This document shows positions 1 through 44,150 of a stretch of DNA of 44,150 nt, one piece after another. Source of the DNA: a virus (taxonomy: Duplodnaviria; Heunggongvirae; Uroviricota; Caudoviricetes); the IMG/VR virus record IMGVR_UViG_3300045988_030968, positions 1 through 44,150 of that record. The stretch is one strand, 5' to 3'. Below the pieces are notes generated by a model. That model saw only the letters and a program-made list of their open reading frames with translations, was not told where the DNA came from and did not search any database. The translations under genes and the position numbers were made by a program. Every line of letters starts with the position of its first letter. Position 1 is the stretch's first letter.

Positions 1-55
1 AGGAAGCCACGACCGCGAAGTGATTATGCTCTCTGCACCGGAGGAGGCAATCTAC
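1..55. repeat. 55-bp direct repeat identical to 44096-44150 (window ends overlap; circular assembly junction)
   Basis: Exact match of first 55 bases to last 55 bases; 55 is a common assembler k-mer size. Confidence 0.9.
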
Positions 56-265
56 ACGGGGAATAGCGCACTAAAAACTGAGTTTTCATTCGGCAACGAA
101 GCAAGGCATAATGCTCAGAAGATAGTTGTTTCTTCAATCGACCCAGGCGACGACCGCACGGTCAAGATTACTGGCTACAACTATGACGACAGATTCTACA
201 AATACGACGGCGTCGCGCCATACGGCAGCGGTTTCTCCGACGGATTCAGCAATGGTTTTAATTAA
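1..265 (+). CDS. 3' end of J-like central tail fibre / tail tip gene that begins at 41856 and crosses the window junction
   Basis: Reading frame is continuous from 41856 through 44150 into 1..265 (stop TAA 263-265); track ORF 20..265 is its tail. Confidence 0.6.
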   Translation, partial: GSHDREVIMLSAPEEAIYTGNSALKTEFSFGNEARHNAQKIVVSSIDPGDDRTVKITGYNYDDRFYKYDGVAPYGSGFSDGFSNGFN

Positions 266-277
266 AGAGGACTCTAT

Positions 278-2275
278 ATGTCAAGCGGATGCGGTGACGT
301 TTTAAGCCTGGCGGATTTACAAACCGCCAAGAAACATCAGATTTTCGAGGCCGAGGTTATCACTGGCAAATCCGGCGGTGTCGCCGGTGGTGCCGATATT
401 GATTACGCGACAAATCAGGTTACTGGACAGACGCAGAAGACACTCCCCGCCGTGTTGCGTGACACTGGTTTTTCTCCTGTAGCGTGGGACTTTTCTACCG
501 GCGGCACGCTAACTGTTAATGACCGCGACAAAGTTGTTTATGACCCGGTGAGTAAAACGTGGTACTCATACGCGGGTACGCTTCCGGTTGTTGTCCCTGC
601 ATCGTTTAACCCGGTCGGTAACGCTAACTGGAAGCCGCAGACCGACCCATATCTACGCGATGATTTAGCAAACACGGATGATGTGCAACTCGGCGACGCC
701 ATGGTCGGGGTTAAATCTGTACTGGCCGGAGCCGTTGGGAGAACCCTACATAGCAAAGTTAGCGACGTGGTTAGTATTTATGACTTTGGCGCCTCATGGG
801 ATGGTGCATTACACCCGTTAAGTGAACGATTCTCCACGCTAACCGCTGCTCAGATGGTCTATCCGTTTGTAACCAGTCTTGACCAGTCTACCGACTACGC
901 AGCTATCCAGGCAGCGTGCGACTCCAAAAAGACGGTACTAATCCCCAAAGGAACTGGCTTTGTAAATTCAACTATCTATTTCAATAATAGCGTCAGAATC
1001 GTCGGGGAGAACACCGACGGCATCAACCGTGCCCAGTCGTTTATATCCGTTGACGGGAACATATCCCTCTTTGCGCTCGCTCAGGGTAGCTCTTCCGGCG
1101 GGACGAAAATGATTCAACTGTTCATTGACGGACTGTATATCTTCTACAATCCAGGAGATACGCCAACCGTCACAACAGGAAATAGTGGGAAGATAGCATT
1201 TAATTTCTATTCCACTGAAGCCGGTACTACCGGGCTTGAAATGTCTGAGATTAAAAACTGCACCGTACACGGTGCATGGCGCTGTTTCTACGACGCCACC
1301 GGAACTTACCTTACTAAGCTGCAAAACGTATGGGCGCGGAATTGCCACGACGGCTTTATCAAGGCGCTTGGTACGACCATTTTGATGGAGACTTGTTACG
1401 CATCTGGGTGTGTCTCCCCTTATCAATTTGGTGCCGTCATGACGGTAACAATGCTTAATTGTGCGATGGACCAGTCAAGCATTACGACGGCTGGTGGTTC
1501 ATTCGGTGGAGCAGGTGTCCATTTCATTAACTCGCACAGCGTTAACATTGTGGGATTTGATGCGGAAGGAAATATAATTTCCACAGATGGTAGTGGGGAT
1601 GCAACTCTTTTCCATTTTGAGAATACTAATGGCAAAATATCTGGCCTAACGGCTCATCAAAACCAGATGAAAACCGTAGCCCCCGCAGCAAGTGGCACTG
1701 TTTCTTTTATAAAGGCGTCTGGAACAAGCCAGGTTATAATCGATTCTTCTGAGGATGACTTGTCGGAGAACGCAATCCCTTACTCCGGAACGGGAGGATA
1801 CCCTATTACGATATACGCTAAGGATGCAACATCCAGAATCGACGTGTACAGCGGACGTTGGCGCGCTCCTGCAGGCGGTTCACCGGCTTTATCAGTGGTT
1901 AGCCAGGGGAATGTTAACTGGTTCTGCCCGCCGATATCCGGTACTGTTTCTGGCGGGTACACCCAACAAGTATCATCCACTGGTCTACAGACACCTGGTT
2001 TCTACACAGCAAAGGGTGCGCAAGCCGTAAGTGCCAGTACGCAAACAACATTGTTTGCATTGCCAAATATGCAGGGGATGTATCTCATTAGTGTATGGGG
2101 TTCCGGCAGCGGCACAAACTACTCTTCTACACAACTAGCGATGTATGATGGCTCATTAACGCTAACGCCATTAAAAGCTGGGGCATTCATAACATTTTCT
2201 TCATCGGGAAGGAATGTAGCGATAACAAGTCAGGGCACGGGAACATTTAACTGGACGTATACAAAACTAGGATAA
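278..2275 (+). CDS. Tailspike / receptor-binding protein (possible polysaccharide depolymerase)
   Basis: 665 aa; RBS AAAGAGG then ATG 278; N-terminal motif YSYAGTLPVVVPASFNPVGNANWKP typical of tailspike anchor domains; Gly/Ser/Thr/Asn-rich C-terminal region; lower GC than genome. Confidence 0.65.
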   Translation: MSSGCGDVLSLADLQTAKKHQIFEAEVITGKSGGVAGGADIDYATNQVTGQTQKTLPAVLRDTGFSPVAWDFSTGGTLTVNDRDKVVYDPVSKTWYSYAGTLPVVVPASFNPVGNANWKPQTDPYLRDDLANTDDVQLGDAMVGVKSVLAGAVGRTLHSKVSDVVSIYDFGASWDGALHPLSERFSTLTAAQMVYPFVTSLDQSTDYAAIQAACDSKKTVLIPKGTGFVNSTIYFNNSVRIVGENTDGINRAQSFISVDGNISLFALAQGSSSGGTKMIQLFIDGLYIFYNPGDTPTVTTGNSGKIAFNFYSTEAGTTGLEMSEIKNCTVHGAWRCFYDATGTYLTKLQNVWARNCHDGFIKALGTTILMETCYASGCVSPYQFGAVMTVTMLNCAMDQSSITTAGGSFGGAGVHFINSHSVNIVGFDAEGNIISTDGSGDATLFHFENTNGKISGLTAHQNQMKTVAPAASGTVSFIKASGTSQVIIDSSEDDLSENAIPYSGTGGYPITIYAKDATSRIDVYSGRWRAPAGGSPALSVVSQGNVNWFCPPISGTVSGGYTQQVSSTGLQTPGFYTAKGAQAVSASTQTTLFALPNMQGMYLISVWGSGSGTNYSSTQLAMYDGSLTLTPLKAGAFITFSSSGRNVAITSQGTGTFNWTYTKLG

Positions 2276-2280
2276 AACTA

Positions 2281-2303
2281 AGGCCCCTAACGGGGCCTTT
2301 TCT
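2281..2303. terminator. Bidirectional rho-independent terminator between convergent tailspike and helicase operons
   Basis: AGGCCCC-TAAC-GGGGCCT hairpin flanked by T-run on plus and A-run (T-run on minus). Confidence 0.6.
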
Positions 2304-15438: not shown

Positions 15439-15644
15439 TGGAAGAATTATTTGAAGAACTGAAACATCATAGACTGGAGAAAGTGCATTTCCAGGTAAAC
15501 AGATACGAAGTTATTTTATTCGACGGCCCAACTATTTCTTCCGGGGTATGGAAGGACCCGCTAAAAGTTTACGTGCACTCCGAACGGCATCGAATCATGA
15601 TGCTCGTGCCGACGACTCTGAGGGAGGTTGCCGTAAATGAATAA
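15438..15644 (+). CDS. Hypothetical small protein
   Basis: ATG overlaps upstream stop. Confidence 0.5.
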   Translation: MEELFEELKHHRLEKVHFQVNRYEVILFDGPTISSGVWKDPLKVYVHSERHRIMMLVPTTLREVAVNE

Positions 15645-15903
15645 CGCTGAACTGGAAAAAGTCTCTGACACCCTTCATAAGGTACGGGTCATGCGCCGGG
15701 GTGCCGGGCTGGAGCAGTTTTATAACATGTGGCGCACAGCGACGCGCGACCCTGAGTTTCTGCGGACAGGTTATTATTTCATTAAAGGCGTTATTCCGAT
15801 TCGCGCCCGCGGGGATTACGGTTGGGTGCGCGAGACACCTAATCTTATGTGGTGTTGGTACTGCGGTGAGTTTTGGGTGCGCGTTAAAGAGAAGATGGGG
15901 TGA
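15637..15903 (+). CDS. Hypothetical small protein
   Basis: Overlapping start/stop with neighbours. Confidence 0.5.
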   Translation: MNNAELEKVSDTLHKVRVMRRGAGLEQFYNMWRTATRDPEFLRTGYYFIKGVIPIRARGDYGWVRETPNLMWCWYCGEFWVRVKEKMG

Positions 15904-15906
15904 GTT

Positions 15907-16050
15907 ATGAGAGAAGCATTCGAACGGTGGGCCGTCGTCGAGGGTCTGCCCGTTAATAAGGGTTCAAAGAAAGAGTACCTGAACGTTAGGACGCGTCTCG
16001 CGTGGCGGGCGTGGAAAGCCGGTGTGCGGTATGCGATGAATACGAGGTGA
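15907..16050 (+). CDS. Hypothetical micro-protein (47 aa)
   Basis: MREAFERWAVVEGLP...; fills gap between flanking ORFs. Confidence 0.35.
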   Translation: MREAFERWAVVEGLPVNKGSKKEYLNVRTRLAWRAWKAGVRYAMNTR

Positions 16051-16053
16051 GAT

Positions 16054-16266
16054 ATGGGCGAGTGGATTAAGTGCAGCTCGAGGCTGCCGGAAGAATTCGC
16101 AGACATTCTTGTTTGCACAGAAGACAGTCAGGTGCATGAGGGTTACTACTTCGTGTATGCCGACAACACTCCTGTTTGGAAAATATATTGTTACAGCAAG
16201 CTGTATGCGAATGATGCGGGGATTGTAACTCACTGGATGCCCTTACCCGAGCCGCCGGAAGCGTGA
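16054..16266 (+). CDS. DUF551-like protein
   Basis: 70 aa; C-terminal VTHWMPLPEPP signature. Confidence 0.55.
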   Translation: MGEWIKCSSRLPEEFADILVCTEDSQVHEGYYFVYADNTPVWKIYCYSKLYANDAGIVTHWMPLPEPPEA

Positions 16267-16307
16267 TGTTATATTGTAACAATAGTTTGGGATTTTACTG
16301 AGTGACT

Positions 16308-16366
16308 TACGCTGCTACACAGCAGCGTACAACTTTAACTTAGTGTCGTCAAAAAGCGACACTTTC
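16308..16366 (+). terminator. Tandem hairpins, terminator-like
   Basis: TACGCTGCT-ACAC-AGCAGCGTA (9-bp stem) and AGTGTCG-N8-CGACACT followed by TTTC. Confidence 0.35.
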
Positions 16367-16409
16367 ACCAAACGCAACAATCGAAGCGGCTATTGCAGGA
16401 GATGCAACA

Positions 16410-16619
16410 ATGATTACTAGAGAACAGGCTGAACGACTAATCGCGTTAATCGACACGATGGTTGATGTAAAAACCGATTCAGCAACGGCAACAGAGGAAC
16501 TCGCTACTTGGTCGCTTGAAGAAAGAGAAGCAGAAGCGGAGCGCGAGTTACTGGCGTTCATCGACTCTATCACACACACACACACAAATAAAATTTACTT
16601 GCACGCTAAGATAGAATAG
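16410..16619 (+). CDS. Hypothetical small protein
   Basis: 69 aa; contains (CA)8 tract near 3' end. Confidence 0.5.
   Translation: MITREQAERLIALIDTMVDVKTDSATATEELATWSLEEREAEAERELLAFIDSITHTHTNKIYLHAKIE
16571..16586. repeat. (CA)8 dinucleotide microsatellite
   Basis: CACACACACACACACA encoding THTHT at the C-terminus of ORF 16410..16619. Confidence 0.9.
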
Positions 16620-16627
16620 GCTACTAT
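16599..16627 (+). promoter_or_regulatory. Conserved promoter, copy D2 (TTGCAC-17-TACTAT)
   Basis: TTGCACgctaagATAGAATAGGcTACTATTCA matches D1 pattern; about 32 nt upstream of ATG 16659. Confidence 0.45.
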
Positions 16628-16658
16628 TCATTTACACAAACGAGAGGAGAGACAGAAG

Positions 16659-16787
16659 ATGAAAGACTATAGCGAAGTAACTTTGGGTGAGTTGCAGGAC
16701 GAGTACGAAGATATGCTCTACCCGTTCATCTGCGACGGAGATTACAACGGCGTCTATAACGGAGTGAGCGAAGAATATGAACAGTAA
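16659..16787 (+). CDS. Hypothetical micro-protein (42 aa)
   Basis: GAGGAGAGA RBS then ATG; overlaps next start. Confidence 0.35.
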   Translation: MKDYSEVTLGELQDEYEDMLYPFICDGDYNGVYNGVSEEYEQ

Positions 16788-17433
16788 AAACGAAGTATTC
16801 GAGTACCTGATTGGCCAGCTACGGCAACACGTAAATAAGAAAGATGTGACATCTTTCAATGTGTCTGTACAGATATCCGACCTTGATGAGGTCAAGCAGG
16901 TAATCCACAATCTACAGCAGCATATCGCTGGTAAGGACGACGAAATACGTATGCTGAAAGACAGTTTACAGAAGCAGCTACCCGTCGTAGATGTAATGGG
17001 CGAAATCAAACGGTGGAGTATTGACCGTAGTATTGCTGACCGCGGCAACTATACCGACGAGGAAAACGCCATAATCGATGCTTGCATCGGCCTGGAGCAC
17101 AACCCCTACAAGCAACAGTGCGAAGACCTGGCGCATGAGGTGCAGTCACTTAAGAATCAGTTACGTGATGCATCGGCGCAGATTAAGGAGTTGCATATGG
17201 CGCTGGTTCGGGCTACTGGCGATGCAGAGGCTTACAAACTTGTGTGCAAACAGGAGCAATCCGGTTGCCGTAAGGAAGACACTCAGGAATGCTGTCACGA
17301 GTTTGTGCACAGCAAACATAAAAGCGGTTTAGTTTGCTTTAAGTGTGGGGCGCGCAAAGAGTGTGAGCACGAATGGCAATTTTACGGAGTCGGGTTTCCA
17401 TGTATGTGCCTTAAATGCGGGCTAAAGAAATGA
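16777..17433 (+). CDS. Coiled-coil protein with C-terminal Cys/His zinc-ribbon-like cluster
   Basis: 218 aa; heptad-rich middle; C-terminus CCHEF...CFKCG...CMCLKCG. Confidence 0.55.
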   Translation: MNSKNEVFEYLIGQLRQHVNKKDVTSFNVSVQISDLDEVKQVIHNLQQHIAGKDDEIRMLKDSLQKQLPVVDVMGEIKRWSIDRSIADRGNYTDEENAIIDACIGLEHNPYKQQCEDLAHEVQSLKNQLRDASAQIKELHMALVRATGDAEAYKLVCKQEQSGCRKEDTQECCHEFVHSKHKSGLVCFKCGARKECEHEWQFYGVGFPCMCLKCGLKK

Positions 17434-17633
17434 CCAGCATCTTATTTATCTGGGTATTGTCCGCAGGCCAGATGCAACTAGCGGCATCAGAAACGTTTTA
17501 CTCGATGGAGGCGTGCCAGTCAGCGGCACGCGCCGCAGAGAACGCGCACTTCCTGTTTCAGGGTGACAAGCCTAATGATTCAGAGGTACGCGCTATCTGC
17601 GCACCTAAGCGACTTGGTAAACAGGAGAAATAA
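17430..17633 (+). CDS. Small protein with N-terminal signal-peptide-like segment
   Basis: MTSILFIWVLSAGQMQLAASE; ATG overlaps upstream stop (ATGA). Confidence 0.45.
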   Translation: MTSILFIWVLSAGQMQLAASETFYSMEACQSAARAAENAHFLFQGDKPNDSEVRAICAPKRLGKQEK

Positions 17634-17926
17634 TGACTCTTGCAACTGACATCCTGAAACGAAGCGGCCTTGCGCCGCTGTCGCCGAGAGCTAAAACACA
17701 GATATACAAGCGTCGAGGTAACGCGCTGTACCCTGAGATTCAGGCCAGACGTAAGGCGGTACGCGCCTGTGGATTCCAGAACGGGAAGGCCGTGAATCTC
17801 GGTGAGTTTAAAACACAGGAACGCGCCGCTATCGCTAATCGGTTATTTAATTACTGGAAATCGCTGGGGTATGAAGATATTCCGACTAAACCACAGAGAC
17901 GACAATACATCTGGAGGCACAAATGA
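17633..17926 (+). CDS. Hypothetical basic protein
   Basis: 97 aa; ATG overlaps upstream stop. Confidence 0.5.
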   Translation: MTLATDILKRSGLAPLSPRAKTQIYKRRGNALYPEIQARRKAVRACGFQNGKAVNLGEFKTQERAAIANRLFNYWKSLGYEDIPTKPQRRQYIWRHK

Positions 17927-18363
17927 CTACTATCGCGTTCGACGGAAAGACAATGGCCTGTGACACGCGTGTTGTGTGCGGAAGTAACTGTTACAACACA
18001 GACACGAAGATATACGAGAATGATTTTGTTGTTATCGGGGCGGCTGGTGATGCCGGAGTAGGGGATATTCTCGTTGGTGATCGAGGAATTTTAGTACCTA
18101 AGCACTATGACTTCGATTTCGAAGCTCTGGTATTCGTGAAAGACACAGAAAAGGTGTATAAAGTCGCGTTCTACAAATCGTGGGATTGCGCACTTAGTTC
18201 AGTTATTCCAATCGCTGATAGCTTTGCTGCCGTAGGCTCCGGTTCTCCTTATGCATTAGCGGCTATGGAGTGCGAATATTCGGCGCATGGCGGAGTGGCC
18301 GTTGCATCGAAGTTTGACACTAACACCGGCGGCAAGATTATTACCAAACAACTATTAGGATAA
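17923..18363 (+). CDS. HslV / proteasome-beta-like Ntn-hydrolase (T1 peptidase fold)
   Basis: 146 aa; N-terminal MTTIAFDG (Thr nucleophile after Met), KIYENDFVVIGAAGDAG, and AVGSGSPYALAA matching HslV GSGGPYA region; GGAGG RBS. Confidence 0.6.
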   Translation: MTTIAFDGKTMACDTRVVCGSNCYNTDTKIYENDFVVIGAAGDAGVGDILVGDRGILVPKHYDFDFEALVFVKDTEKVYKVAFYKSWDCALSSVIPIADSFAAVGSGSPYALAAMECEYSAHGGVAVASKFDTNTGGKIITKQLLG

Positions 18364-18422
18364 TTCCTACCCGTGGTATCCTCCAGTTACTGCATACTTA
18401 ATACGCACCTGGAGGATTCATC

Positions 18423-18731
18423 TTGGATAAATTTACTGAAACAGTGACAGGCTGGCTTCTCGCTGCCGCACTCGCCGGAGGGGTAATCGGACTACGGCAG
18501 CATAAGTCCGTTATTTCTGGCCCTATCGACGGCTTCTGCTTTATCGCAACTGGCTTCACTTGCGCCGTATTTGGGGCACCTCTCGCGGCTCAATGGTTCG
18601 GTATCACTGGCGACCGTGAAATCGCTGGTCTGGGCTTTATCATCGCTATTCTCTGGATGCCTATCTATTCCCGTCTCTCCGGTATCGTCGCCGGAGAATA
18701 CATCGCACGTCGAGGAGGCCCAGATGAATGA
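18423..18731 (+). CDS. Membrane protein, putative holin
   Basis: 102 aa, three hydrophobic segments; TTG start 6 nt after GGAGGA; immediately upstream of endolysin. Confidence 0.5.
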   Translation: MDKFTETVTGWLLAAALAGGVIGLRQHKSVISGPIDGFCFIATGFTCAVFGAPLAAQWFGITGDREIAGLGFIIAILWMPIYSRLSGIVAGEYIARRGGPDE

Positions 18732-18996
18732 GTTATTCTGGTTCGGCGGTATGCTGGCAATCGGAGGCACATCGCTGTTTAACGTGTATCACCCCCGCGT
18801 TGACGATGGGCTATTTGGCCGGGTGCTCTATATCCTGACCGCTATTGTCTGCGCTGCCGGATGTATCCACCTGTTACAGGGCAGCATGTCACCTACGTTG
18901 CCTGAGACATTAATCACATTAGTTGCGCTGCGTCAGATTCGTCAGGCGTGGCTATCGTACGGAGGACATAAGCGTGTCTCGAAACATTTCAGATAA
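18724..18996 (+). CDS. Second small membrane protein (holin/antiholin candidate)
   Basis: 90 aa from internal ATG of track ORF 18571..18996; two hydrophobic segments; ATG overlaps upstream stop. Confidence 0.45.
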   Translation: MNELFWFGGMLAIGGTSLFNVYHPRVDDGLFGRVLYILTAIVCAAGCIHLLQGSMSPTLPETLITLVALRQIRQAWLSYGGHKRVSKHFR

Positions 18997-36694: not shown

Positions 36695-37059
36695 ACGCGC
36701 TGTACAGGTTCGCCACCTACGAGTTCGTTGATAAGCATAAAATCAGAGAGTTTGATTCTATAGCCGACGGACATGAACAGGCGCTTATCGCGATGGGTGT
36801 AATCGATAAGAAAAAACGTGCAGCGCGACGGGGTGGGCCGGAATGCCCGCCCCTTTTTATATCCACCTTTGAGACGTATTGCGACATTAAGTTTACGCGA
36901 CACGTGCGCGAGGACGCTGTAGTATTGTTTGCAAGAGAATCCGTTACGTGGCAAGACCTGAAAGCCTATCTCGATGTTACGCAAAAACAGCTTAGCCTGT
37001 TCGAGATAGACATTATCATGGGCTTAGAAGCAATCTTTGAAGGTAGAAATCATGGCTGA
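36278..37059 (+). CDS. Tail assembly chaperone frameshift product (gpGT-like, -1 shift at 36685-36691)
   Basis: -1 frame is open from 36670 to 37059; heptamer G GAA AAG immediately before G stop. Confidence 0.5.
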
Positions 37060-39475
37060 TACCGCTAGTTTGATAGTACGAGTATCATCGACCGGCGTCG
37101 ATAAAACCACATCACAACTGAACGGGCTTACTAAGGCGGCGGGGGCTGCCGCGGCAGCCGTCGTTAGTCTGGAAACCGCTAAGCAGGTGTTCAGTGCGCT
37201 GGTGGACTCCCAGCGCAACTTCGATAAGCTGAATTCCGGCCTCATCACGATGACCGGGAGCGCTGAGAACGCGGCTAAGGCTTTCAGCGTCCTGCAACAG
37301 TTCGCAAAAGAAACCCCATACGGGCTTAACCAGGCAGTGGAAGGCTTTACTAAGCTGGTGGCTCTGGGCCTGAACCCCAGCAAAGAAGCGTTAATCTCCT
37401 ACGGCAACACCGCCGCGGCTATGGGTAAAGACCTTAATCAAATGATTGAGGCTGTGGCGGACGCCAGTACCTTTGAATTTGAGCGCTTAAAAGAGTTCGG
37501 CATCAAGTCCTCCCAACAGGCAGATACAGTGTCGTTCACGTTCCGCGGCGTAACGACTACTGTTAAAAAGAACTCCGAAGAGATTCAGAAATACCTTCTG
37601 AACATCGGCAACACGGATTTCGCCGGGGCGATGGAGACGCGCTCTAAGACGTTAGACGGGCAGTTATCCAGCCTAGCGGACTCCTTTGACGGCCTTGTAC
37701 TCGCGGTGGCGCAATCAGGTTTCGGCGACGCCGTAGGCGAGCAAGCTGCGACCGCGGAAGATGCTATCACGGCGCTTACCGACGCCATCGCGTCTAATGA
37801 GATAGCCGCTACACTCCAGGATTGGGTGACACTGTTCAATGAATCGTTCAAGTTTATTTCTGATGCCTTGAACGACCTGGCATTTGACACCGAGGACAAA
37901 TCCGCGGATATGTCCGACTCGCTAGGGACTATACCGGACGCCATCCGTGAGTGGTTGCCTGACATCCAGCAGACATTCCACGAGGTTATTGCGTGGTTCC
38001 AGCGCATTGACGATTACGCGGTAGCGTTAGGCCAGACCCTTGCCGACGTGTTTGACCCGAGCAAAACGGCAGCGCTCACATTTAAAAACCTAACCGCAGA
38101 GGCTGACGCTGCGTACGCCGCCAGTATAAAACGTGCAGAGGCTGAATCACAGGCCATCACCAACAGGTCTAAGCAGCGTAAGAAAGAAATTGAGGAACAG
38201 CGCAAGCAGTATGACGAGCGCAAGAAGCAAGAAATTGACTTAGCCAGCCTTGTTAATAAAAAGGGCGGAACTGGCGGAACCGGAAATACCAACGACAAAG
38301 ACGCGAAAGCCGCTGCTAAGAAAGCGGAGCAATTGCGCAAACAGGCCCAGGATTATCTGGACACTTTGGCGCGTCAGAACAACGATGAGTTAAAGGCTAT
38401 TGACGCGCAGGAACAGCAGAAACTTAAAGAGGCCGCTAAATACCGAAAAGAAGGGGCGCTAACCGCTGAAGAGTATGAAAAGGCGAAAACCGCAATAGTT
38501 CTTCAATACGGACAAAAGCGCCAGGACGCTCTTGATAAAGAGTTAGCCGAGGAGCAGAAAAAACTGCAACAAGGCGTGGCTGTTCTGGCGTCAATCGACC
38601 CTATCGCAAACTTACAGCTCGAGCGGCAGAAGAGACTCGCAGTTATAGAGGAATACGAGGCCCAAGAAAACTCAGTACATGAAGTCGCGTTGCAAGCACG
38701 GGCAGAACTGGACAAGCAATACAACGAAGGGTTGGCCGCCGCAGCTGAGGAGCGTTTCCGCAGCCAATCCGAATGGAACAACATGTTAATGGACTCCCTC
38801 GATGCGGTTGGTGCATCCGCGTCCAGTTCCATAGTCGGTCTTATTAACGGCACACAGACCGCGAGTGAGGCAATGGCAAACTTGGGCAGCGCCATTCTAT
38901 CCTCAGTCGTTTCAGGGCTAACACAGATGGGGGTGGAGTACCTGAAAAACATGATTATCGGGCAAACGGCATCCGCGGCGACTATCGCGACCGCATCGGC
39001 TACCGGCGCGGCGATTGCTGCAGCGTATGCCCCCGCCGCAGCGATGGCGTCCCTGGCTACTCTCGGGACAAACAGCGCCCCAGCGATGGCGGGCATCACA
39101 TCAACGGTGGCGAGTACCCAAGCGTTGGCCCTAACTGGATTCCGTGAACAAGGCGGGCAAATGAACGCTGGCGGCAGCTATCTTGTCGGCGAGCGTGGCC
39201 CTGAGATTATCAAGATGGCGGGGGCAGGGCGTGCGGTAAACGCAAGCCAAACACGGCAACAGTTAAACGGTAATAATAACGGAAATAGTGGGCCAGCCAA
39301 TATCAGCATTATAAATAACACCAGCGCACAAATTGGAAATACCAGTGTTGAGCAGGATGATGAAGGCCGTTTGCGTATCATCATAGAGGAGCAAGTTGCC
39401 GCTTCGCTGCAGAATAGTAACAGCAAAATATCGAAAGCGAGGAAGGCTACAAGAAACGCCCCTGGCTTTAAGTGA
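37052..39475 (+). CDS. Tail tape measure protein
   Basis: About 808 aa, Ala/Gln/Glu-rich coiled coil; start at internal ATG of track ORF. Confidence 0.8.
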   Translation: MADTASLIVRVSSTGVDKTTSQLNGLTKAAGAAAAAVVSLETAKQVFSALVDSQRNFDKLNSGLITMTGSAENAAKAFSVLQQFAKETPYGLNQAVEGFTKLVALGLNPSKEALISYGNTAAAMGKDLNQMIEAVADASTFEFERLKEFGIKSSQQADTVSFTFRGVTTTVKKNSEEIQKYLLNIGNTDFAGAMETRSKTLDGQLSSLADSFDGLVLAVAQSGFGDAVGEQAATAEDAITALTDAIASNEIAATLQDWVTLFNESFKFISDALNDLAFDTEDKSADMSDSLGTIPDAIREWLPDIQQTFHEVIAWFQRIDDYAVALGQTLADVFDPSKTAALTFKNLTAEADAAYAASIKRAEAESQAITNRSKQRKKEIEEQRKQYDERKKQEIDLASLVNKKGGTGGTGNTNDKDAKAAAKKAEQLRKQAQDYLDTLARQNNDELKAIDAQEQQKLKEAAKYRKEGALTAEEYEKAKTAIVLQYGQKRQDALDKELAEEQKKLQQGVAVLASIDPIANLQLERQKRLAVIEEYEAQENSVHEVALQARAELDKQYNEGLAAAAEERFRSQSEWNNMLMDSLDAVGASASSSIVGLINGTQTASEAMANLGSAILSSVVSGLTQMGVEYLKNMIIGQTASAATIATASATGAAIAAAYAPAAAMASLATLGTNSAPAMAGITSTVASTQALALTGFREQGGQMNAGGSYLVGERGPEIIKMAGAGRAVNASQTRQQLNGNNNGNSGPANISIINNTSAQIGNTSVEQDDEGRLRIIIEEQVAASLQNSNSKISKARKATRNAPGFK

Positions 39476-39520: not shown

Positions 39521-40918
39521 ATGAGCGAAGTATATTTCCCACGTAGCCTTAAGCCGGTGGTATCGAAAGGCTACTCAATGACCAGACGTAACAACGTCTG
39601 GAGTGTTGATTTAGCCGGCGGCGGTGTACGTCAGGGGCGCGACACGTATTACGACGTGTTCCCTATAAGCGTAACCCTGGTTACATCGGCGCTGGGGCGG
39701 CAGGCGTTTCTGTCGTTCCTCGAAAAAGTCGATGGTGGTGCGTCAAGTTTCTGGATGGCGCATGACTTCGGCATGGGTATTCAGGATTACCAAGTAACAA
39801 TCACGTCAACCATCGCAGAGTCCACAGAAGACGGCATTAACTGGACGATTACTTTCACGGCAACCGCTGAGAAATCGCCGTTCCAGAACCTCGAGAACCA
39901 GTGCCTGATTAACAATCTGCCCGATTTGTACGGCTGCTATGGTGACTGCCTGGGTAGTTTCCTGAAAATATATGCTAACTATGAGACGACATTCCCGCGC
40001 ATTTGGAGTAACGAAGGCCCTGCTGGCTATCCGCCGATTAACCTTCTGGCATCTACACTGGATAGCCGAGTCATTTACGAAGGGCCGCAGATTTACTATA
40101 TCAACCGCAACGGCAATCTTGTGCAATCAGCGGTTAATCAATGGCCTCTTACGTTTATCGGTGGTGTTGCTGTTGGGCGCGTTCCCCCTGAAGCCGCAGC
40201 GGAAAACAGAATCAAATTTTCAGATGATTTCTCTAACGGTATATGGACCGGAAACAGGCGTGTCACAATAACAAAAGTATCTGATTCTGGGTATGAGAAT
40301 GCCTTTAGCTTAGTGGCTCCCAACTCTGAAAATAATAACCACCAACTTGGGCAAACTGTCGTCCTTGATGACTTTAGCTCAATAGTGCTTTCTGTGTTTG
40401 TGAAACCAGATGGGTATAACATCATTCGTTTACGCCTGACAGACCCCATATCGTTGTGGCGAGATGTAGTTATCAATATATCAACCGGCGACAAAATATC
40501 GGGAACTGGAGAATACCATCTGACAGAAGTTGGTAACGGATGGAAAAGATTGTCCCTTTATGTATCCCCGAGAGAGGAGGCTGGGTTATCACGCATTATA
40601 TACGGAATATGGATATATTCTAATGATGGGCAACCTGACTTTTCTGGCGATGGTGCGTCAGGAATACTCGCGTATGGGGCGCAGGTTGAAATCGGCGGTC
40701 AGCCTTCATCATTAATTGCAACAGAAAGCAATTATAGGGCCCGACCGTCGGCATCGGCAAAAGTAGCCATGAATGGTGCGACAAGCATCGACATTACATA
40801 CTCTGATGGTTCTACCGTAAACGTGCCCGCAGTAGATAACTACGCCACCATCCCCCAAGCCGATTCGGCGTGGGGCAGTAAATATATTACTCGTATCGAC
40901 TTTAATGTGGACGGTTAA
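39521..40918 (+). CDS. Minor tail protein, gpM-like N-terminus with large C-terminal extension
   Basis: N-terminal SKGYSM...AFLSFLEKVDGGASSFW resembles lambda M; residues ~240-410 encoded by low-GC DNA. Confidence 0.55.
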   Translation: MSEVYFPRSLKPVVSKGYSMTRRNNVWSVDLAGGGVRQGRDTYYDVFPISVTLVTSALGRQAFLSFLEKVDGGASSFWMAHDFGMGIQDYQVTITSTIAESTEDGINWTITFTATAEKSPFQNLENQCLINNLPDLYGCYGDCLGSFLKIYANYETTFPRIWSNEGPAGYPPINLLASTLDSRVIYEGPQIYYINRNGNLVQSAVNQWPLTFIGGVAVGRVPPEAAAENRIKFSDDFSNGIWTGNRRVTITKVSDSGYENAFSLVAPNSENNNHQLGQTVVLDDFSSIVLSVFVKPDGYNIIRLRLTDPISLWRDVVINISTGDKISGTGEYHLTEVGNGWKRLSLYVSPREEAGLSRIIYGIWIYSNDGQPDFSGDGASGILAYGAQVEIGGQPSSLIATESNYRARPSASAKVAMNGATSIDITYSDGSTVNVPAVDNYATIPQADSAWGSKYITRIDFNVDG

Positions 40919-40921
40919 TTT

Positions 40922-41437
40922 ATGAGCCAGGAATCAGTAGAAGCCGCCTATCGCCGTAAGCTGGCCTCAAATCCCGACGGCGAGATGGACTACATAACGT
41001 TGCAAATAAGCCACCCGTTGCTGTCAAAGACGTACTATCTTGTGCGCGGGCTGCAGGAACTTACGGCAACACTGGAGACAGGCGAAACAATCACGTTCGA
41101 GCCAACCCCGATGGAAGCGTCGGGAGCGGCCAACAACAGTGATATGGACCAGACGACGACGTTTACTTTACCGGATATTCTCAATCAACTGGATGATGAG
41201 ATGGGTAAAATCCCGATGAGTAACACCGAGTTGCCGAAGTTCGTCTTCCGCCGTTACGTCAGCTCCGACCTGTCTTATCCTGCTGACGGCCCTGTCGTGT
41301 ACGAGCTACAGGCCATCAACCAAGAGAAAGGTGAGTTCTCCGCTGATGTCGGTACGCCTATGCTGAACCAACGAAGCACTGGTATACTGATGACACCTAA
41401 AGAGATACCGTTATTACGCGGCCTGTTGACCACATGA
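40922..41437 (+). CDS. Minor tail protein (gpL-like position)
   Basis: 171 aa between gpM-like and gpK-like genes. Confidence 0.45.
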   Translation: MSQESVEAAYRRKLASNPDGEMDYITLQISHPLLSKTYYLVRGLQELTATLETGETITFEPTPMEASGAANNSDMDQTTTFTLPDILNQLDDEMGKIPMSNTELPKFVFRRYVSSDLSYPADGPVVYELQAINQEKGEFSADVGTPMLNQRSTGILMTPKEIPLLRGLLTT

Positions 41438-41799
41438 ATATTAACGACTACACGGGCATACCTTACGACTTTCGTAAACGCAATTGCTGGCATCACGTTC
41501 GCATTGTCCGCGCGGATGCCGGATTAGAGACCCCCGCGTTCGACGTTACAAGCCCAACGGCGATTAACGATGCGTTCGACGAAGGGCATCGCGATACAAA
41601 GGGGCTTACAAAAATCGATAGGCCTGAAAACTTCTGTGCCGTGCTTATGGGGTATCGCCGTGGTGGTCGTATCGTGTGGCACGCGGGAGTTTACTTTGAC
41701 GGGATGGTGAGTCATTGCGAACTTGCCTCACGTCAGGTACGGCTTGACAGGCTGGCGGACCTCAGAGACACGTACACGGAGATTGAATTTTGGCGATAA
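41434..41799 (+). CDS. Tail assembly protein, gpK-like NlpC/P60-type
   Basis: Cys/His signature NCWHHV and WHAGVY. Confidence 0.55.
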   Translation: MNINDYTGIPYDFRKRNCWHHVRIVRADAGLETPAFDVTSPTAINDAFDEGHRDTKGLTKIDRPENFCAVLMGYRRGGRIVWHAGVYFDGMVSHCELASRQVRLDRLADLRDTYTEIEFWR

Positions 41800-41855
41800 T
41801 CCTGCACTACACGCGAAACGCCGACGGGGCTTTCGACCGTACAAAACACGTCGGG

Positions 41856-44150
41856 ATGCCGATGGAGTTTGTCGTTAACCACATTCCCGACGGCGTACCT
41901 GTACGCGTCTACCTCGGCGAGATTGGCGATGATACTGATGTCACCGACGACTTCGACGCGCTTAAAGACGAAGACGCTGTGTACCACATTATTGAGGGTG
42001 CTGGTGGTGGCATCGGCGACGCTATCGGGAGTGTATTCAGTTTCATCCTTAAGCCAATTGCCAAGTTGTTCGGGCTTAACACCGCGGCTAACGCGAATTA
42101 TTCTGCTACCAACAACCAGGCTACGTCGCCTAACAACAGTCTCACCGACCGCTCAAACAAACCCCGTCCTTATGAGCGCTCCTATGATATATGCGGGACA
42201 GTGCAGACTATCCCCAATGACCTGATGCAGACGTATAAGGTGTTTAATGCCGCAGGGGCGCTTATTGAATACGCATACTATGACGCCGGTCGAGGGTATC
42301 TGCATATTGAGGAAGACGGTGTAACCGAGGCAGATACCAGAATCAGCGAGATAACTGGCTCGTCGGTGACGGTATATTCTCCTTACACTTCGCCGAATAA
42401 TACCAGCGCCCCACAATTGCATATCGGCGACCCGATAGACCAGAAGTTGTACATTACATTTAAAAATGCCGATGTCGATGGCGCTGTTCTTCCTGCGCCT
42501 AATGACATCGCGATAGACGTCGCTCTGTATACTGTACAACGGCAGGGCCCAACAGGCATTGTCGTTGGTAGTGATGCCGGTTTTGACGAAATAATTTCAG
42601 TAGGTGACTTGGTCTATTTTGACAACGTCTACGCAGATACGACTCCAACCTATCAAGGCGATGAAGTTAACCTGGATGGTCGCTATACGGTACTTTCAGT
42701 GAGCGAGACCACACTTATCGTTGATATAAGCCCAAATCAATCGGTATGGAACCAAATAGGAACCGCCCAATGGGAAATAGACGCCAACGTAGGTAATCAT
42801 CTTATCGGCCCGGCGGACACTTACGCGGCTTCTCTCTCTGAATGGGCGTACATCACCCGCGGTACTGTCGACCGTGTTGTAGCCAATGTCGCCGCCAGCA
42901 ACGGCATGTATAAATACAACGGCGATTATAATCGTGCCTCCGTAACGGTGGAACTGCAATACCAGATGGTGGACGAATTGAAACAGCCCGTTGGCGATAT
43001 ATTCACCGTGCAAGGCACTGTTACAGGGAGAAACACTGATTACACTGGTATCACCTTATATGGTAGTTTGCCTACTGCTTCCCGATTCCGCGCCCGTATG
43101 CGTCGTGTTTCTGACACCGATAAAGATTTTGAGGGTACTGTTAGTGACGAGGTTACTTTCACTAATCTGTACGGGCAGTCACTGGATACAACCCCGCACT
43201 ACGGCAACCGCACTACCGTACACTGCGCTCGTAAACAAACGCCACGTGCCGCGGAGGTGTCCGAACCGGAACTACGCATGATTGCTACCGAGATGTGCTA
43301 CAAATACCTCGGAAATGGCGTATTCGATACGGCAATGACACCGAACACTCAGGCCGTGCAGTCACTAATCCGCTTGGCTCGCGACCCCGCGGTGGGTAAT
43401 CTGGAACTGACAACGGCAAACATGGACAAGTTACTCGCCGTTCAGGAAGAAATTGAGTCTTATTTTGGTAGTAAATTAGCTGGACAATTCTGCTACACGT
43501 TCGACGATTACGACACAACTATGCAGGACATTGTTCAGACCATAGCGGAAGCCGTGTTCTGTACAGCGTACCGTAAAGGTGCAGATATTATGCTGCGATT
43601 CGACCGTCCGGTCGCGGGGCCGGAGATGGTGTTCACTCACCGCAGCAAAACGACCGGTACAGAGAAATGGACGCGCACGTTCAACGATTCGACAACCTAC
43701 GATAGCCTGTCGTTCTCGTACATCGACCCGGATACGAACGTACAGGAGACAATTTATATCCCGGAAGAACTCGGTGCAAATACCGAGGAGTACGAATCGA
43801 AGGGCGTGCGCAATTATCAGCAGGCTTACTGGCAGGCGTGGCGTCGATATCAGCGCAACACGTTAAGTAAAGTTGTCGTAGAGTTCGAAGCTACTGAAGA
43901 AGGGGCGCTCGCTACACCCGGCGGCGTAATCAGCGTGGTTAAAGGTTCACGTATTGCTCCGCAGGATGGTTATGTTGTTGCCGTTAATGGGCTTACGCTG
44001 ACGCTGTCGCAGCCGGTTATGTTCACCCCCGGCGACGACCACTCCATCATCCTCAAGAAGCGCGATGGCTCGGTGCAGAGTATCTCCGTTATCAAAGGAA
44101 GCCACGACCGCGAAGTGATTATGCTCTCTGCACCGGAGGAGGCAATCTAC
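41856..44150 (+). CDS. J-like central tail fibre / tail tip protein, 5' part (continues into 1..265)
   Basis: Frame open from ATG 41856 to window end and in phase with ORF 20..265; Gly-rich hydrophobic N-terminal segment; no stop in window so absent from ORF track. Confidence 0.6.
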   Translation, partial: MPMEFVVNHIPDGVPVRVYLGEIGDDTDVTDDFDALKDEDAVYHIIEGAGGGIGDAIGSVFSFILKPIAKLFGLNTAANANYSATNNQATSPNNSLTDRSNKPRPYERSYDICGTVQTIPNDLMQTYKVFNAAGALIEYAYYDAGRGYLHIEEDGVTEADTRISEITGSSVTVYSPYTSPNNTSAPQLHIGDPIDQKLYITFKNADVDGAVLPAPNDIAIDVALYTVQRQGPTGIVVGSDAGFDEIISVGDLVYFDNVYADTTPTYQGDEVNLDGRYTVLSVSETTLIVDISPNQSVWNQIGTAQWEIDANVGNHLIGPADTYAASLSEWAYITRGTVDRVVANVAASNGMYKYNGDYNRASVTVELQYQMVDELKQPVGDIFTVQGTVTGRNTDYTGITLYGSLPTASRFRARMRRVSDTDKDFEGTVSDEVTFTNLYGQSLDTTPHYGNRTTVHCARKQTPRAAEVSEPELRMIATEMCYKYLGNGVFDTAMTPNTQAVQSLIRLARDPAVGNLELTTANMDKLLAVQEEIESYFGSKLAGQFCYTFDDYDTTMQDIVQTIAEAVFCTAYRKGADIMLRFDRPVAGPEMVFTHRSKTTGTEKWTRTFNDSTTYDSLSFSYIDPDTNVQETIYIPEELGANTEEYESKGVRNYQQAYWQAWRRYQRNTLSKVVVEFEATEEGALATPGGVISVVKGSRIAPQDGYVVAVNGLTLTLSQPVMFTPGDDHSIILKKRDGSVQSISVIKGSHDREVIMLSAPEEAIY
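44096..44150. repeat. 55-bp direct repeat identical to 1-55
   Basis: Exact identity. Confidence 0.9.

Follow-up and report, generated by a model that had tools for sequence, protein, structure and literature searches.

A tail-tip hub gene divided by the contig ends and a putatively exchangeable tailspike downstream of it in a Kagunavirus genome

Introduction

Which protein of a glycan-dependent siphovirus reads the host surface, the hub at the tail tip or the spike encoded beside it? Kagunavirus phages depend on O-antigen or capsule and encode their spike directly 3' of J (PMC11990801), and in one Jerseyvirus adaptation of the host range has been traced to the tailspike gene (PMC13054033). 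That an exchangeable spike takes over receptor recognition has already been published for Kagunavirus (PMC11990801, PMC10408124) and for Jersey (PMC13243795). Here we address this question at a locus where the hub gene is cut by the ends of the assembled contig. The window, that is, the whole stretch of DNA analysed, comprises the 44,150 nt of IMG/VR record IMGVR_UViG_3300045988_030968; all features below lie on its plus strand, except the terminal duplicate and a hairpin, which have no strand. A sequence-only reading of the window had proposed a J-like gene that leaves the window at one end and finishes at the other, followed directly by a tailspike to which receptor recognition is delegated.

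Results

The last 55 bp of the window (44096..44150) were an exact copy of positions 1-55. Alignment with Escherichia phage VB_EcoS-Golestan (Kagunavirus golestan; hereafter Golestan) over the junction was colinear only without these 55 bp, and retaining them produced 55 gap columns. The duplicate stems from overlap in the assembly of a contig that closes to a circle and is no biological repeat within the gene, because relatives are colinear only with a single copy. De Bruijn assemblers commonly finish with a standard k-mer of 55; the assembler would have closed the genome to a circle, cut it inside the tail-tip gene and left the 55-bp k-mer overlap. Once the overlap is removed, the genome is whole, circularly assembled and 44,095 bp long. 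It might be objected that the junction-spanning ORF is a product of a chimeric join or a misassembled repeat, and that the real genes are two shorter or truncated ones. Nothing favours this beyond the fact that the contig ends split the gene and bear a repeat. Against it, the join was intact and colinear in Golestan and in 52 related loci carrying a full-length J ORF, 51 phage records covered at least 80% of the window part of the gene, and the IMG/VR contig L002 aligned without a gap from window position 40922 through the junction to 667 (3841 bp, 96.1% identity). Moreover, removal of exactly 55 bp restored both frame and colinearity. The chance that the gene is an artefact is therefore negligible, and we regard this objection as effectively refuted already: as the Golestan and L002 alignments indicate, the window ends, on whose contiguity the sequence-only reading had staked its claim, do adjoin each other in real genomes.

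Once one copy of the duplicate was taken out, the reading frame that begins at ATG 41856 stayed open for 834 codons and closed at a stop at 263-265. This bears out the proposals that the J-like gene leaves the window end and ends at 265, that no in-frame stop interrupts it, and that ORF lists on the linear window miss it, the list in hand containing just an 81-aa fragment (20..265). The start proposed earlier, ATG 41856, has to be revised, since it is codon 23 of a frame whose conserved start is TTG 41790. TTG 41790, giving 856 aa, is on comparative grounds the more likely start. It overlaps the stop of the upstream gene by 10 nt and stands 8 nt downstream of a GGAG Shine-Dalgarno sequence (41778..41781), whose flank is conserved in relatives. 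The 22 N-terminal residues thus gained are conserved throughout the subfamily, even in relatives without Met at the position equivalent to 41856, and their variable sites are distributed 3/3/10 over the three codon positions. In addition, the PHROG 469 alignment begins at residue 1, and Golestan gp29 is annotated from the same TTG-type start. The gene thus delimited consists of a 5' part with codons 1-787 (41790..44150) and a 3' part that continues from 44150 with codons 788-856 and TAA 263-265 (56..265).

By sequence comparison the source genome is a complete Kagunavirus (Guernseyvirinae) coliphage. The J-like gene was 88-89% identical in nucleotides to 51 full-length Kagunavirus records, and the backbone comparison (24.7 kb) gave up to 82% coverage at about 88% identity, with the synteny and similarity expected within the genus. 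Identity to the best record lies below the 95% species threshold, and therefore a separate species within Kagunavirus is suggested. Golestan, with a backbone about 88% identical, is accordingly a different species-level lineage. Its pair of gp29 (tail protein) and gp30 (tail fibre/tailspike) nevertheless shows the same gene order, the same 12-nt spacer and the same TTG-type start overlapping the upstream gene. The J-like protein of Golestan is 95% identical to that of the window, but its variable domain is just 74% identical; over its first 389 nt the spike anchor matches at about 87% DNA identity, whereas the receptor module is unrelated (similarity score 0.04).

The genes upstream of the J-like gene form a typical tail-tip series. 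The tape measure protein gene (37037..39475, start approximate) is followed by a 465-aa distal tail protein (39521..40918), which matched Sf11 gp17 (9occ_C, E=1.8e-86) and NF048003, by a 171-aa DUF1833 minor tail protein (40922..41437), which occupies the place that gp30, a hub partner resembling lambda gpL, has in Jersey (PMC13243795), and by a 121-aa minor tail protein (41434..41799), the stop of which overlaps the J-like start by 10 nt. This order of tape measure, distal tail protein, DUF1833/gpL-like, 121-aa and J-like proteins was identical in Golestan and parallel in lambda and Sf11, and the J-like gene is the last large gene of the tail module, the position expected of TipJ. BLASTP found no match of the 171-aa protein to lambda gpL or Sf11 gp16, and no PDB sequence relatives were found for the 171-aa and 121-aa proteins. 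In the distal tail protein, a ring domain (residues 1-162) is followed by an accessory appendage (about residues 163-465; about 40007-40918) that resembles the head spike fibre of RcGTA. The protein occurs in short and long forms, the appendage being found in 16 of 53 loci; L002 has none at all, and neither have the Jersey-type loci sampled, all of which carry the short form. BLASTP against Sf11 gp17 gave 42% identity over 424 residues (E=2e-95), so that the Sf11 appendage is well conserved in the window over these aligned columns.

In order to place the junction-spanning protein, we compared it with profiles and solved hubs. It matched NCBIfam NF040662 (attach_TipJ_rel) at 393.8 bits, above the cut-off of 140, its residues 360-836 aligning with positions 5-477 of the 477-position profile, and it matched Sf11 gp14 (PDB 9occ_E) at E=7.5e-26, with homology at both ends of gp14; the Pfam FNIII-A_GpJ match was below threshold (16.8 vs 27). 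These homologies make the protein a TipJ-family member and a relative of the solved hub gp14 of Shigella phage Sf11. Lambda J is of the same family and is likewise encoded where the tail gene cluster ends. Alignment to it was confined to J residues about 86-533 of 1132, ending near 515-533, beyond which about 95-110 residues of the window protein remained; hhalign gave E=7e-4 with a probability of 27%. Because the alignment stops at about residue 515, there is no counterpart of the J fibre and receptor domain. Relative to lambda J, the window protein is without the last 500 or so residues (FNIII repeats, central fibre and LamB-binding domain) and is extended at its N-terminus by about 250 residues, among them a hypervariable domain; homologues of gpK and gpI are absent, and recognition would proceed via a separate spike. 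By homology, then, the J-like protein is equivalent to lambda J reduced to its hub part, without the C-terminal central fibre and LamB-binding domain. In agreement with this, published HHpred analysis of the Jersey homologue gave E=5.7e-49 to gpJ and placed the C-terminal antireceptor domain among the parts that are absent (PMC13243795). The protein is indeed shorter than lambda J, as had been stated (lambda J has 1132 aa, 15505..18903), but short length alone is evidence of nothing.

Conservation pointed in the same direction. [quoted passage not shown] With the variable domain excluded, dN/dS against the closest relatives was 0.02-0.03. A structure model (AF2), built on P0003, which is 97-98% identical to the window protein, had a mean pLDDT of 39 and was confident solely at residues about 239-454, probably due to an alignment of close homologues only (72-98% identity). 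A Foldseek search with this model returned first T1 (9l9p_S) and lambda J (8xcg_J, 8k35_A, 9e7m_Ja) at E 5e-5 to 5e-3, matches that, given the low-confidence model, lend no support to domain-level claims. Because the model is poor, we base the hub architecture on homology at the sequence and profile levels, together with the published models of relatives.

Only one part of the J-like protein, otherwise 90-98% conserved, was hypervariable, namely residues about 241-340 (42510..42809), delimited by the conservation profile and predicted as a small beta-domain. Synonymous divergence was saturated in this domain, making its dN/dS incomputable, and was 0.26-0.37 in the flanks. The domain was identical in the window and L002 despite differing flanks, and it differed widely among three carriers of the spike found here, with a mutual identity of just 25%. 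This pattern indicates cassette replacement, not selection on point mutations. The model was confident only over this domain (pLDDT 61-92) and the following FNIII-like sheet, and Foldseek detected weak similarity of the domain to carbohydrate-binding modules and the receptor domain of the PM2 spike (E 0.01-0.1). We considered a coupling between this domain and spike type, for which Spearman coefficients of 0.39 raw and 0.22 partial (J-core identity controlled) were obtained, and rejected it because of counter-examples in both directions.

The second proposal, a 665-aa gene starting 13 nt past the J-like stop, was recovered as ORF 278..2275. The 12-nt spacer AGAGGACTCTAT (266..277) contains the Shine-Dalgarno sequence AGAGGA, and the same J-spike spacing was kept in 43 of the 59 related loci listed. 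An N-terminal anchor (residues 1-130; 278..667) is conserved across the lineage; within it, residues 1-62 were nearly invariant across Guernseyvirinae regardless of receptor module, and a small beta-domain at residues 66-120 gave a weak PF18668 match. The anchor is followed by a predicted receptor-binding and enzymatic cassette (residues about 131-662; 668..2264), delimited by the L002 breakpoints and by fold and modelled as a neck, a right-handed beta-helix (about 219-545) and a C-terminal beta-sandwich (578-664). Mean pLDDT of the spike model (AF2, monomer) was 83, with low confidence in the N-terminal 60 residues. Homology and structure searches, which the sequence-only reading had called for, returned parallel beta-helix tailspikes: Foldseek gave a probability of 1.00 to those of phi297, Sf6, CBA120 (TSP3), LKA1 and HK620, phmmer matched 4ru4 and 4ru5, and the sequence match to LKA1 gp49 and phi297 sat at the start of the helix. 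The downstream protein is thus modelled as a right-handed parallel beta-helix tailspike, with the combination of anchor and beta-helix receptor module known from P22, Sf6, HK620, CBA120 TSP1-4 and LKA1 gp49.

A GC content of 38-45% had been reported for the C-terminal half of the spike, and this did not hold. We measured 47.9% for that half, 48.5% for the cassette and 50.6% for the genome; 200-nt windows ranged over 42.5-55.5%, and a single 100-nt window reached 38%. About 20% of same-size genome windows were lower (about the 20th percentile), so the dip is statistically unremarkable and low GC was discarded as a mark of foreign origin. Downstream of the spike, a GC-rich hairpin, AAGGCCCC-GTTA-GGGGCCTT (2280..2299), with T-runs on both sides, probably terminates transcription in both directions where the tail module meets the convergent replication genes.

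Exchange of the spike module was evident from the comparison of loci. L002 has a J protein 99% identical to that of the window, yet an unrelated spike module, and its DNA similarity ends at 667 and returns at 2265. Conversely, L025 and L058 have J proteins just 73% identical and the same spike module at 91-94%. Kagunavirus DNA similarity to the spike was limited to the first 389-434 nt. Linkage at 90% identity or more placed 22 Kagunavirus loci in one J-core cluster, and these 22 carried 17 types of tailspike receptor module; over 52 loci there were 34 receptor-module clusters as against 10 J-core and 6 anchor clusters. The same receptor module was also found on a P22-type head-binding anchor (P0182, PF09008), in 842-aa lateral tail fibres of Veterinaerplatzvirus (JeanPiccard), and in E. 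coli tail proteins of 751 aa, presumably prophage-borne, whose genes lie on large contigs and chromosomes of that species. A search of the phage collection found no such module type in cultured Kagunavirus records; the best matches there (JeanPiccard, Veterinaerplatzvirus records and SU57) had 59-60% amino-acid identity, the 91-94% identical copies came from metagenome-derived contigs only, and a DNA search with the module returned nothing beyond 65-71% identical matches outside the genus. In alignments of this kind the receptor module is directly visible as an exchangeable, apparently horizontally swapped cassette. According to Pas et al. 2023, the anchor of Kagunavirus tailspikes follows taxonomy, the module follows the host glycan and a DNA motif marks the boundary (PMC10408124). 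The window holds a corresponding segment at 607..660 (motif one/two of that study, PMC10408124), a candidate recombination hotspot, which matches a Klebsiella phage with a 39-kb genome, Yersinia CAU_YEP3 and Salmonella/Escherichia phages of 150-160 kb at 73-90% identity. For receptor prediction, SU57, JeanPiccard and O2 were looked for in Pas et al. and not found. E. coli O2 was considered as the receptor and set aside as too weak a candidate, O2 appearing in one source name, that of a 61% identical and presumably prophage-borne E. coli tail protein (P0166).

Discussion

Taken together, these findings make it highly probable that the locus is a Kagunavirus hub gene cut by the contig start and followed by a swappable tailspike that would mainly set host range. 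The delegation of receptor recognition put forward in the sequence-only reading is upheld by a J-like protein lacking the fibre domain, a beta-helix spike and visible module exchange. As a possible mechanism, a J trimer would close the tail tube below the distal tail protein ring; the tailspike would act as a homotrimer, six such trimers attaching with their N-terminal helices to the adaptor helix which the distal tail protein provides. The spike would bind and cleave E. coli O-antigen or capsule, so that host range would be set mainly by the spike cassette present, and glycan cleavage would bring the hub to the outer membrane, where it would open and the DNA be ejected.

The docking step is modelled on Sf11, whose cryo-EM structure (PDB 9OCC) has six trimeric spikes seated on the adaptor helix of its distal tail protein (PMC12724387). 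Sf11 orders its module in the same way (tape measure, distal tail protein bearing a large appendage, small and then large hub protein, tailspike); it differs in its genus (Cedarrivervirus), in lacking the 121-aa gene and in its Sf6-like spike module. The spike anchor is colinear with Sf11 gp13 (residues 53-135 vs 51-135, 31% identity), and both spike residues 1-62 and distal tail protein residues 120-162 are conserved across the subfamily. Docking on the distal tail protein is an inference, because the spike N-terminus lacks similarity to gp13 and the adaptor helix region is weakly similar to that of Sf11. In sequence comparison neither the first 50 spike residues nor the small hub proteins resembled those of Sf11, and spike residues 1-52 showed no detectable similarity to the gp13 helix. 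The spike could accordingly be anchored on the J-like hub, as might be read from the 12-nt J-spike spacing in most loci, from a J N-terminal domain that is conserved in the subfamily (PMC13243795), and from Sf11-type helix contacts that are unrecognisable here at the sequence level. We consider this unlikely: in the solved Sf11 tip it is the distal tail protein that bears the spikes, three Sf11 components have homologues here in the same order (the gp16 counterpart lacking detectable similarity), and six-fold attachment is easier to reconcile with the hexameric ring of the distal tail protein than with a hub that is trimeric. By analogy with Sf11, it is thus the distal tail protein (ring domain, residues 1-162), not J, to which the spike probably attaches.

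The role of the spike itself may be read in other ways. In a two-step scheme the spike would serve a reversible glycan step, and the J variable domain or the appendage would bind a terminal receptor, LPS core or an outer-membrane protein, and trigger ejection; delegation would then be partial. The J cassette could still contact the cell, being the sole hypervariable part of its protein, exchanged like a cassette and confidently modelled as a beta-domain with weak similarity to carbohydrate-binding modules. Salmonella phage Jersey, with gp32 as its J-like hub and gp33 as its P22-like tailspike, offers a parallel: it belongs to the same subfamily and has a minimal hub, a truncated gpL-like partner and a spike directly downstream, and its hub combines a conserved N-terminal domain with an Ig-like domain inserted on the hub finger (PMC13243795), this insertion at the hub tip having been proposed as a possible antireceptor (PMC13243795). 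The N-terminal J extension and spike N-terminus of Jersey are conserved in the window; its J is about 60-65% identical, and its spike module is of P22 type, directed against Salmonella O-antigen. The likeness of the appendage to the RcGTA head spike, and its presence in some loci, fit the same scheme. What makes it fairly doubtful is that the 22 Kagunavirus loci with their 17 spike types have 2 types of J variable domain, and that neither this domain nor the appendage tracks spike type (for the appendage, Spearman -0.06, a crude value with one HSP identity for both halves). L002, moreover, has the same J protein and no appendage, and BASEL Kagunavirus isolates depend fully on O-antigen, from which their authors conclude that the spike is the terminal recognition element (PMC11990801). 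Alternatively, the downstream protein might be a beta-helical adhesin that binds without cleaving, since no catalytic residues and no Pfam enzyme domain were identified in the spike, the closest module PHROG (phrog_8649) is of 'unknown function', and the same module is named 'lateral tail fiber' in JeanPiccard. This appears very unlikely, as the top structural matches are all active enzymes (Sf6 endorhamnosidase, LKA1 gp49 O-antigen lyase, CBA120 TSP2-4), the LKA1 gp49/phi297 sequence match lies at the helix start, and related modules match PF12708 (pectate lyase 3). We retain a putative glycan-cleaving spike as the probable main determinant of host range.

A bolder proposal is that the tail tip carries three independently exchangeable host-contact modules, the spike cassette, the J cassette and the optional distal tail protein appendage. 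We hold this to be improbable; if true, the J cassette, the appendage or both would be a second, slower-evolving adhesin or ejection trigger, and glycan-dependent siphoviruses regarded as 'single-receptor' would read more than one surface cue. The architecture, spike delegation and modular exchange have all been described previously, and our data add nothing unexpected to them. The spike module type is new to cultured Kagunavirus isolates, and the locus provides clean natural cassette boundaries (667/668 and 2264/2265) for host-range engineering, on the backbone of a siphovirus that is small and tractable. Any annotation of the unmodified contig will miss or truncate the tail-tip gene, which calls for re-linearising the genome and for reading the gene from the conserved TTG. 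Separately, we observed that many database homologues of the J-like protein are called 22-32 residues short, from an internal ATG.

Results and discussion

A direct end-to-end comparison showed that window bases 1-55 are identical to the final 55. De Bruijn assemblers whose last k-mer is 55 leave an overlap of 55 bases on circular contigs. As the sequence-only reading had supposed, the two ends adjoin in the real genome: Escherichia phage VB_EcoS-Golestan (Kagunavirus) was colinear with the joined sequence at 88.9% identity, retention of the second copy gave exactly 55 extra gap columns, and the related IMG/VR contig L002 matched from 40922 across the junction to 667 in one gap-free alignment (3841 bp, 96.1% identity). 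In public genomes, the homologous gene is uninterrupted and lies mid-genome. A DNA search of phage records with the J-like gene returned 82 matches, all to Escherichia phages or Kagunavirus, 51 of them full length at 87-89% identity, and a backbone stretch of 24.7 kb was about 88% identical to Kagunavirus genomes, with coverage up to 82%. From these comparisons we read the window as the complete, 44,095-bp genome of a Kagunavirus (Guernseyvirinae) and, because identity to known records is well below 95%, probably as a separate species.

Once one 55-bp copy is dropped, the frame from ATG 41856 stays open for 834 codons to a TAA at 263-265, and the J-like gene thus crosses the window end and finishes at 265, as proposed. 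It was also correctly foreseen that linear ORF finding would miss it: only an 81-aa fragment at 20..265 was listed and the 5' part was absent, since ORFs running off an end go unlisted. The proposed start at ATG 41856, however, did not hold. A TTG in the same frame, at 41790, lies 8 nt downstream of a GGAG and gives a 10-nt overlap with the stop of the preceding gene. The resulting 22-residue extension (LAIILHYTRNADGAF...) is conserved at the protein level across the subfamily, including Jersey-type loci without Met at the position equivalent to 41856, and variable sites in the start region fell at codon positions 1, 2 and 3 in the numbers 3, 3 and 10 (23 same-length loci). The PHROG 469 alignment begins at residue 1 of this long form, and the RefSeq annotation of Golestan gp29 is of the same TTG type. 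Because these lines agree, we place the gene at 41790..44150 plus 56..265 on the plus strand, encoding 856 aa; the earlier length of 834 codons describes the frame open from the ATG, not the gene itself. For many public homologues (P0003, P0004, P0040-P0108), the annotation begins at an internal ATG and gives 824-832 aa; judged by the conserved TTG that lies 66 nt further upstream and the 22 conserved residues that it adds, such annotations appear to be truncated at the N-terminus. For annotation, the genome should be re-linearised and the TTG start used.

The J-like protein passed the NCBIfam TipJ-family model over residues 360-836 (394 bits against a cut-off of 140) and falls in PHROG 469 ('tail protein'). 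Both of its ends are homologous to gp14, a hub protein of the Shigella siphophage Sf11 (cryo-EM entry 9OCC, E=7.5e-26). The match of a profile from 44 homologues to lambda J was weak (E=0.013) and covered J residues 150-533, and hhalign paired window residues 335-747 with lambda J residues 86-515 (E=7e-4, probability 27%). The AlphaFold model was poor, with a mean pLDDT of 39, and its top Foldseek matches were still the T1 and lambda tail-tip J chains. The Jersey homologue matched gpJ by HHpred at E=5.7e-49 and was described in 2026 as a hub without any C-terminal antireceptor domain (PMC13243795). On the TipJ, gp14 and lambda J matches together with the Jersey study, we equate the window protein with the hub part of J, preceded by about 250 additional residues at the N-terminus; it has no counterpart of the C-terminal stretch of lambda J, roughly 500 residues long. 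The C-terminal half (residues 460-856) is 91-98% conserved among 43 homologues, and dN/dS against the closest relatives is 0.02-0.03 outside a single variable segment, a pattern that we read as the signature of a structural core and not of a host-range domain. Window 41994..42077 (residues 69-96) encodes a Gly-rich, partly hydrophobic segment (EGAGGGIGDAIGSVFSFILKPIAKLFGL), conserved with Sf11 gp14 and helical by low-confidence prediction; one possibility is that this part of the N-terminal domain, a domain which published models do not place, acts as a tether or is membrane-active.

Downstream, an ORF of 665 aa occupies 278..2275 behind a 12-nt spacer that contains an AGAGGA ribosome-binding site, in agreement with the gene described as starting 13 bp past the J-like stop. 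Its AlphaFold model was confident (pLDDT 83). After a helical, low-confidence N-terminus (residues 1-62) and a small beta-domain (66-120) come a neck, then a long parallel beta-helix (about 219-545) and, at the C-terminus, a beta-sandwich (578-664). Foldseek matched the model to the phi297, Sf6, CBA120, LKA1, HK620 and other tailspikes with probability 1.0, and phmmer aligned LKA1 gp49 and the phi297 spike at the helix start; the predicted fold thus upholds the assignment as a tailspike. A reduced GC content of about 38-45% had also been pointed out in the C-terminal half of the spike. The dip exists but is unremarkable: GC is 47.9% in the second half of the gene and 48.5% in the receptor cassette (window 668-2264), compared with a genome value of 50.6%; roughly a fifth of windows of equal length lie lower, and 38% is reached by one 100-nt window only. 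As it lies within the ordinary range of the genome, low GC carries no weight as an argument for an exchanged spike.

DNA likeness to other Kagunavirus spikes was limited to the first 389-434 nt of the gene, and no close relative of the remainder beyond the N-terminal anchor was found in the phage collection. The best matches there to the spike module were 'lateral tail fibre' or tailspike proteins of JeanPiccard, Veterinaerplatzvirus records and SU57 (59-60% amino-acid identity); phage vB_EcoP-611R6 reached 47%. A large protein database held full-length copies at 91-94% identity on metagenomic contigs of ~44 kb. The same module stands behind other N-termini, namely a P22-type head-binding domain, 842-aa fibres, and 751-aa tail proteins encoded on large contigs and chromosomes of E. 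coli (presumably prophage-borne), and the window-type anchor is also joined to unrelated modules of the Beta_helix, Pectate_lyase_3 and Peptidase_S74 types. We fetched 61 related IMG/VR loci and compared their modules pairwise; 52 loci fell into 34 clusters by spike module, 6 by anchor and 10 by J core, and within one J-core cluster of 22 Kagunavirus loci (linked at at least 90% identity) there were 17 spike types. L002 has a J protein 99% identical to that of the window and an unrelated spike module, with similarity ending at 667 and returning at 2265, just ahead of the stop codon and a hairpin at 2280-2299. In contrast, loci L025 and L058 carry the window's spike at 91-94% identity and have J proteins only 73% identical to that of the window. 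[quoted passage not shown] The 17 spike types and the opposite behaviour of L002 and L025/L058 bear out the idea of an exchangeable tailspike and indicate that the module moves as a cassette between lineages.

Two further variable modules lie in the tail tip, which is why recognition in two steps, beyond the spike alone, keeps a modest probability. One is window 42510..42809 (J residues about 241-340), hypervariable within an otherwise highly conserved gene, with 20-46% identity to the query against 70-98% in most other segments, and saturated synonymous divergence from Golestan-type relatives against 0.26-0.37 in the flanks. It is identical in L002 although the flanks differ, and therefore behaves as a cassette exchanged by recombination. 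No other part of the protein is modelled as well, and this segment probably corresponds to the Ig-like insertion proposed as a possible cell contact in the study of Jersey (PMC13243795). The other is an optional appendage (about 40007..40918, residues about 163-465) of the distal tail protein (39521..40918). This appendage has relatives in the RcGTA head spike fibre and Sf11 gp17 and might act as a second adhesin for glycans. The preceding part, residues 1-162, is conserved throughout Guernseyvirinae, and 37 of 53 loci, among them L002 and all Jersey-type loci, have the short form of 162-167 aa. However, the genus has just two types of the J segment, which share about 20-25% identity, and neither this segment nor the appendage follows spike type. 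The spike as receptor binder is not overturned by either module. In L025 (IMG/VR 3300045988_013393), the long-form distal tail protein has 363 aa against 470 aa in the near-identical L058, which may reflect a frameshift, truncation or sequencing error.

The Sf11 tail tip is syntenic with the window: tape measure, distal tail protein with large appendage, small hub protein, large hub protein and tailspike. In its structure, the hexameric distal tail protein has an adaptor helix to which six spike trimers are joined by their N-terminal helices (PMC12724387). Sf11 gp17 is a clear homologue of the 465-aa distal tail protein (E=1.8e-86), and from residue 53 onward the anchor of the spike aligns colinearly with Sf11 gp13 at 31% identity; no sequence similarity was detected between the Sf11 docking helices and their presumed counterparts here. 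Across Guernseyvirinae, spike residues 1-62 and distal tail protein residues about 120-162 are nearly invariant whatever the spike module. From this paired conservation and the Sf11 homology, we take the distal tail protein, and not the J-like protein, as the probable docking site of the spike. The spike would then bind and cleave O-antigen or capsule before the hub opens at the membrane, as suggested by the fold, by the strict dependence of Kagunavirus isolates on glycans (PMC11990801) and by the mapping of Jerseyvirus host-range adaptation to the spike gene (PMC13054033). Between the genes for a DUF1833 protein and the J-like protein, 41434..41799 encodes a minor tail protein of 121 aa; the Sf11 module lacks an equivalent, and the PDB contains no sequence relative.

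The reading that recognition is delegated to an exchangeable tailspike was correct, given the hub without antireceptor domain, the spike fold and the cassette exchange, and it is already published for Kagunavirus. The BASEL extension paper explicitly described for this genus a J-like protein directly followed by a tailspike as terminal receptor-binding protein (PMC11990801); anchor/module exchange with boundary motifs (PMC10408124), the truncated Jersey hub (PMC13243795) and the homologous Sf11 tail tip (PMC12724387) have likewise been reported. The architecture is therefore ordinary and already explained, here in a new member of a known genus, and the value of the locus is mainly in annotation and as a clean example of cassette boundaries. 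The right boundary is also marked by the GC-rich hairpin at 2280..2299, which has T-runs on both strands, lies between the tailspike gene and convergent minus-strand replication genes, and is likely a bidirectional terminator.
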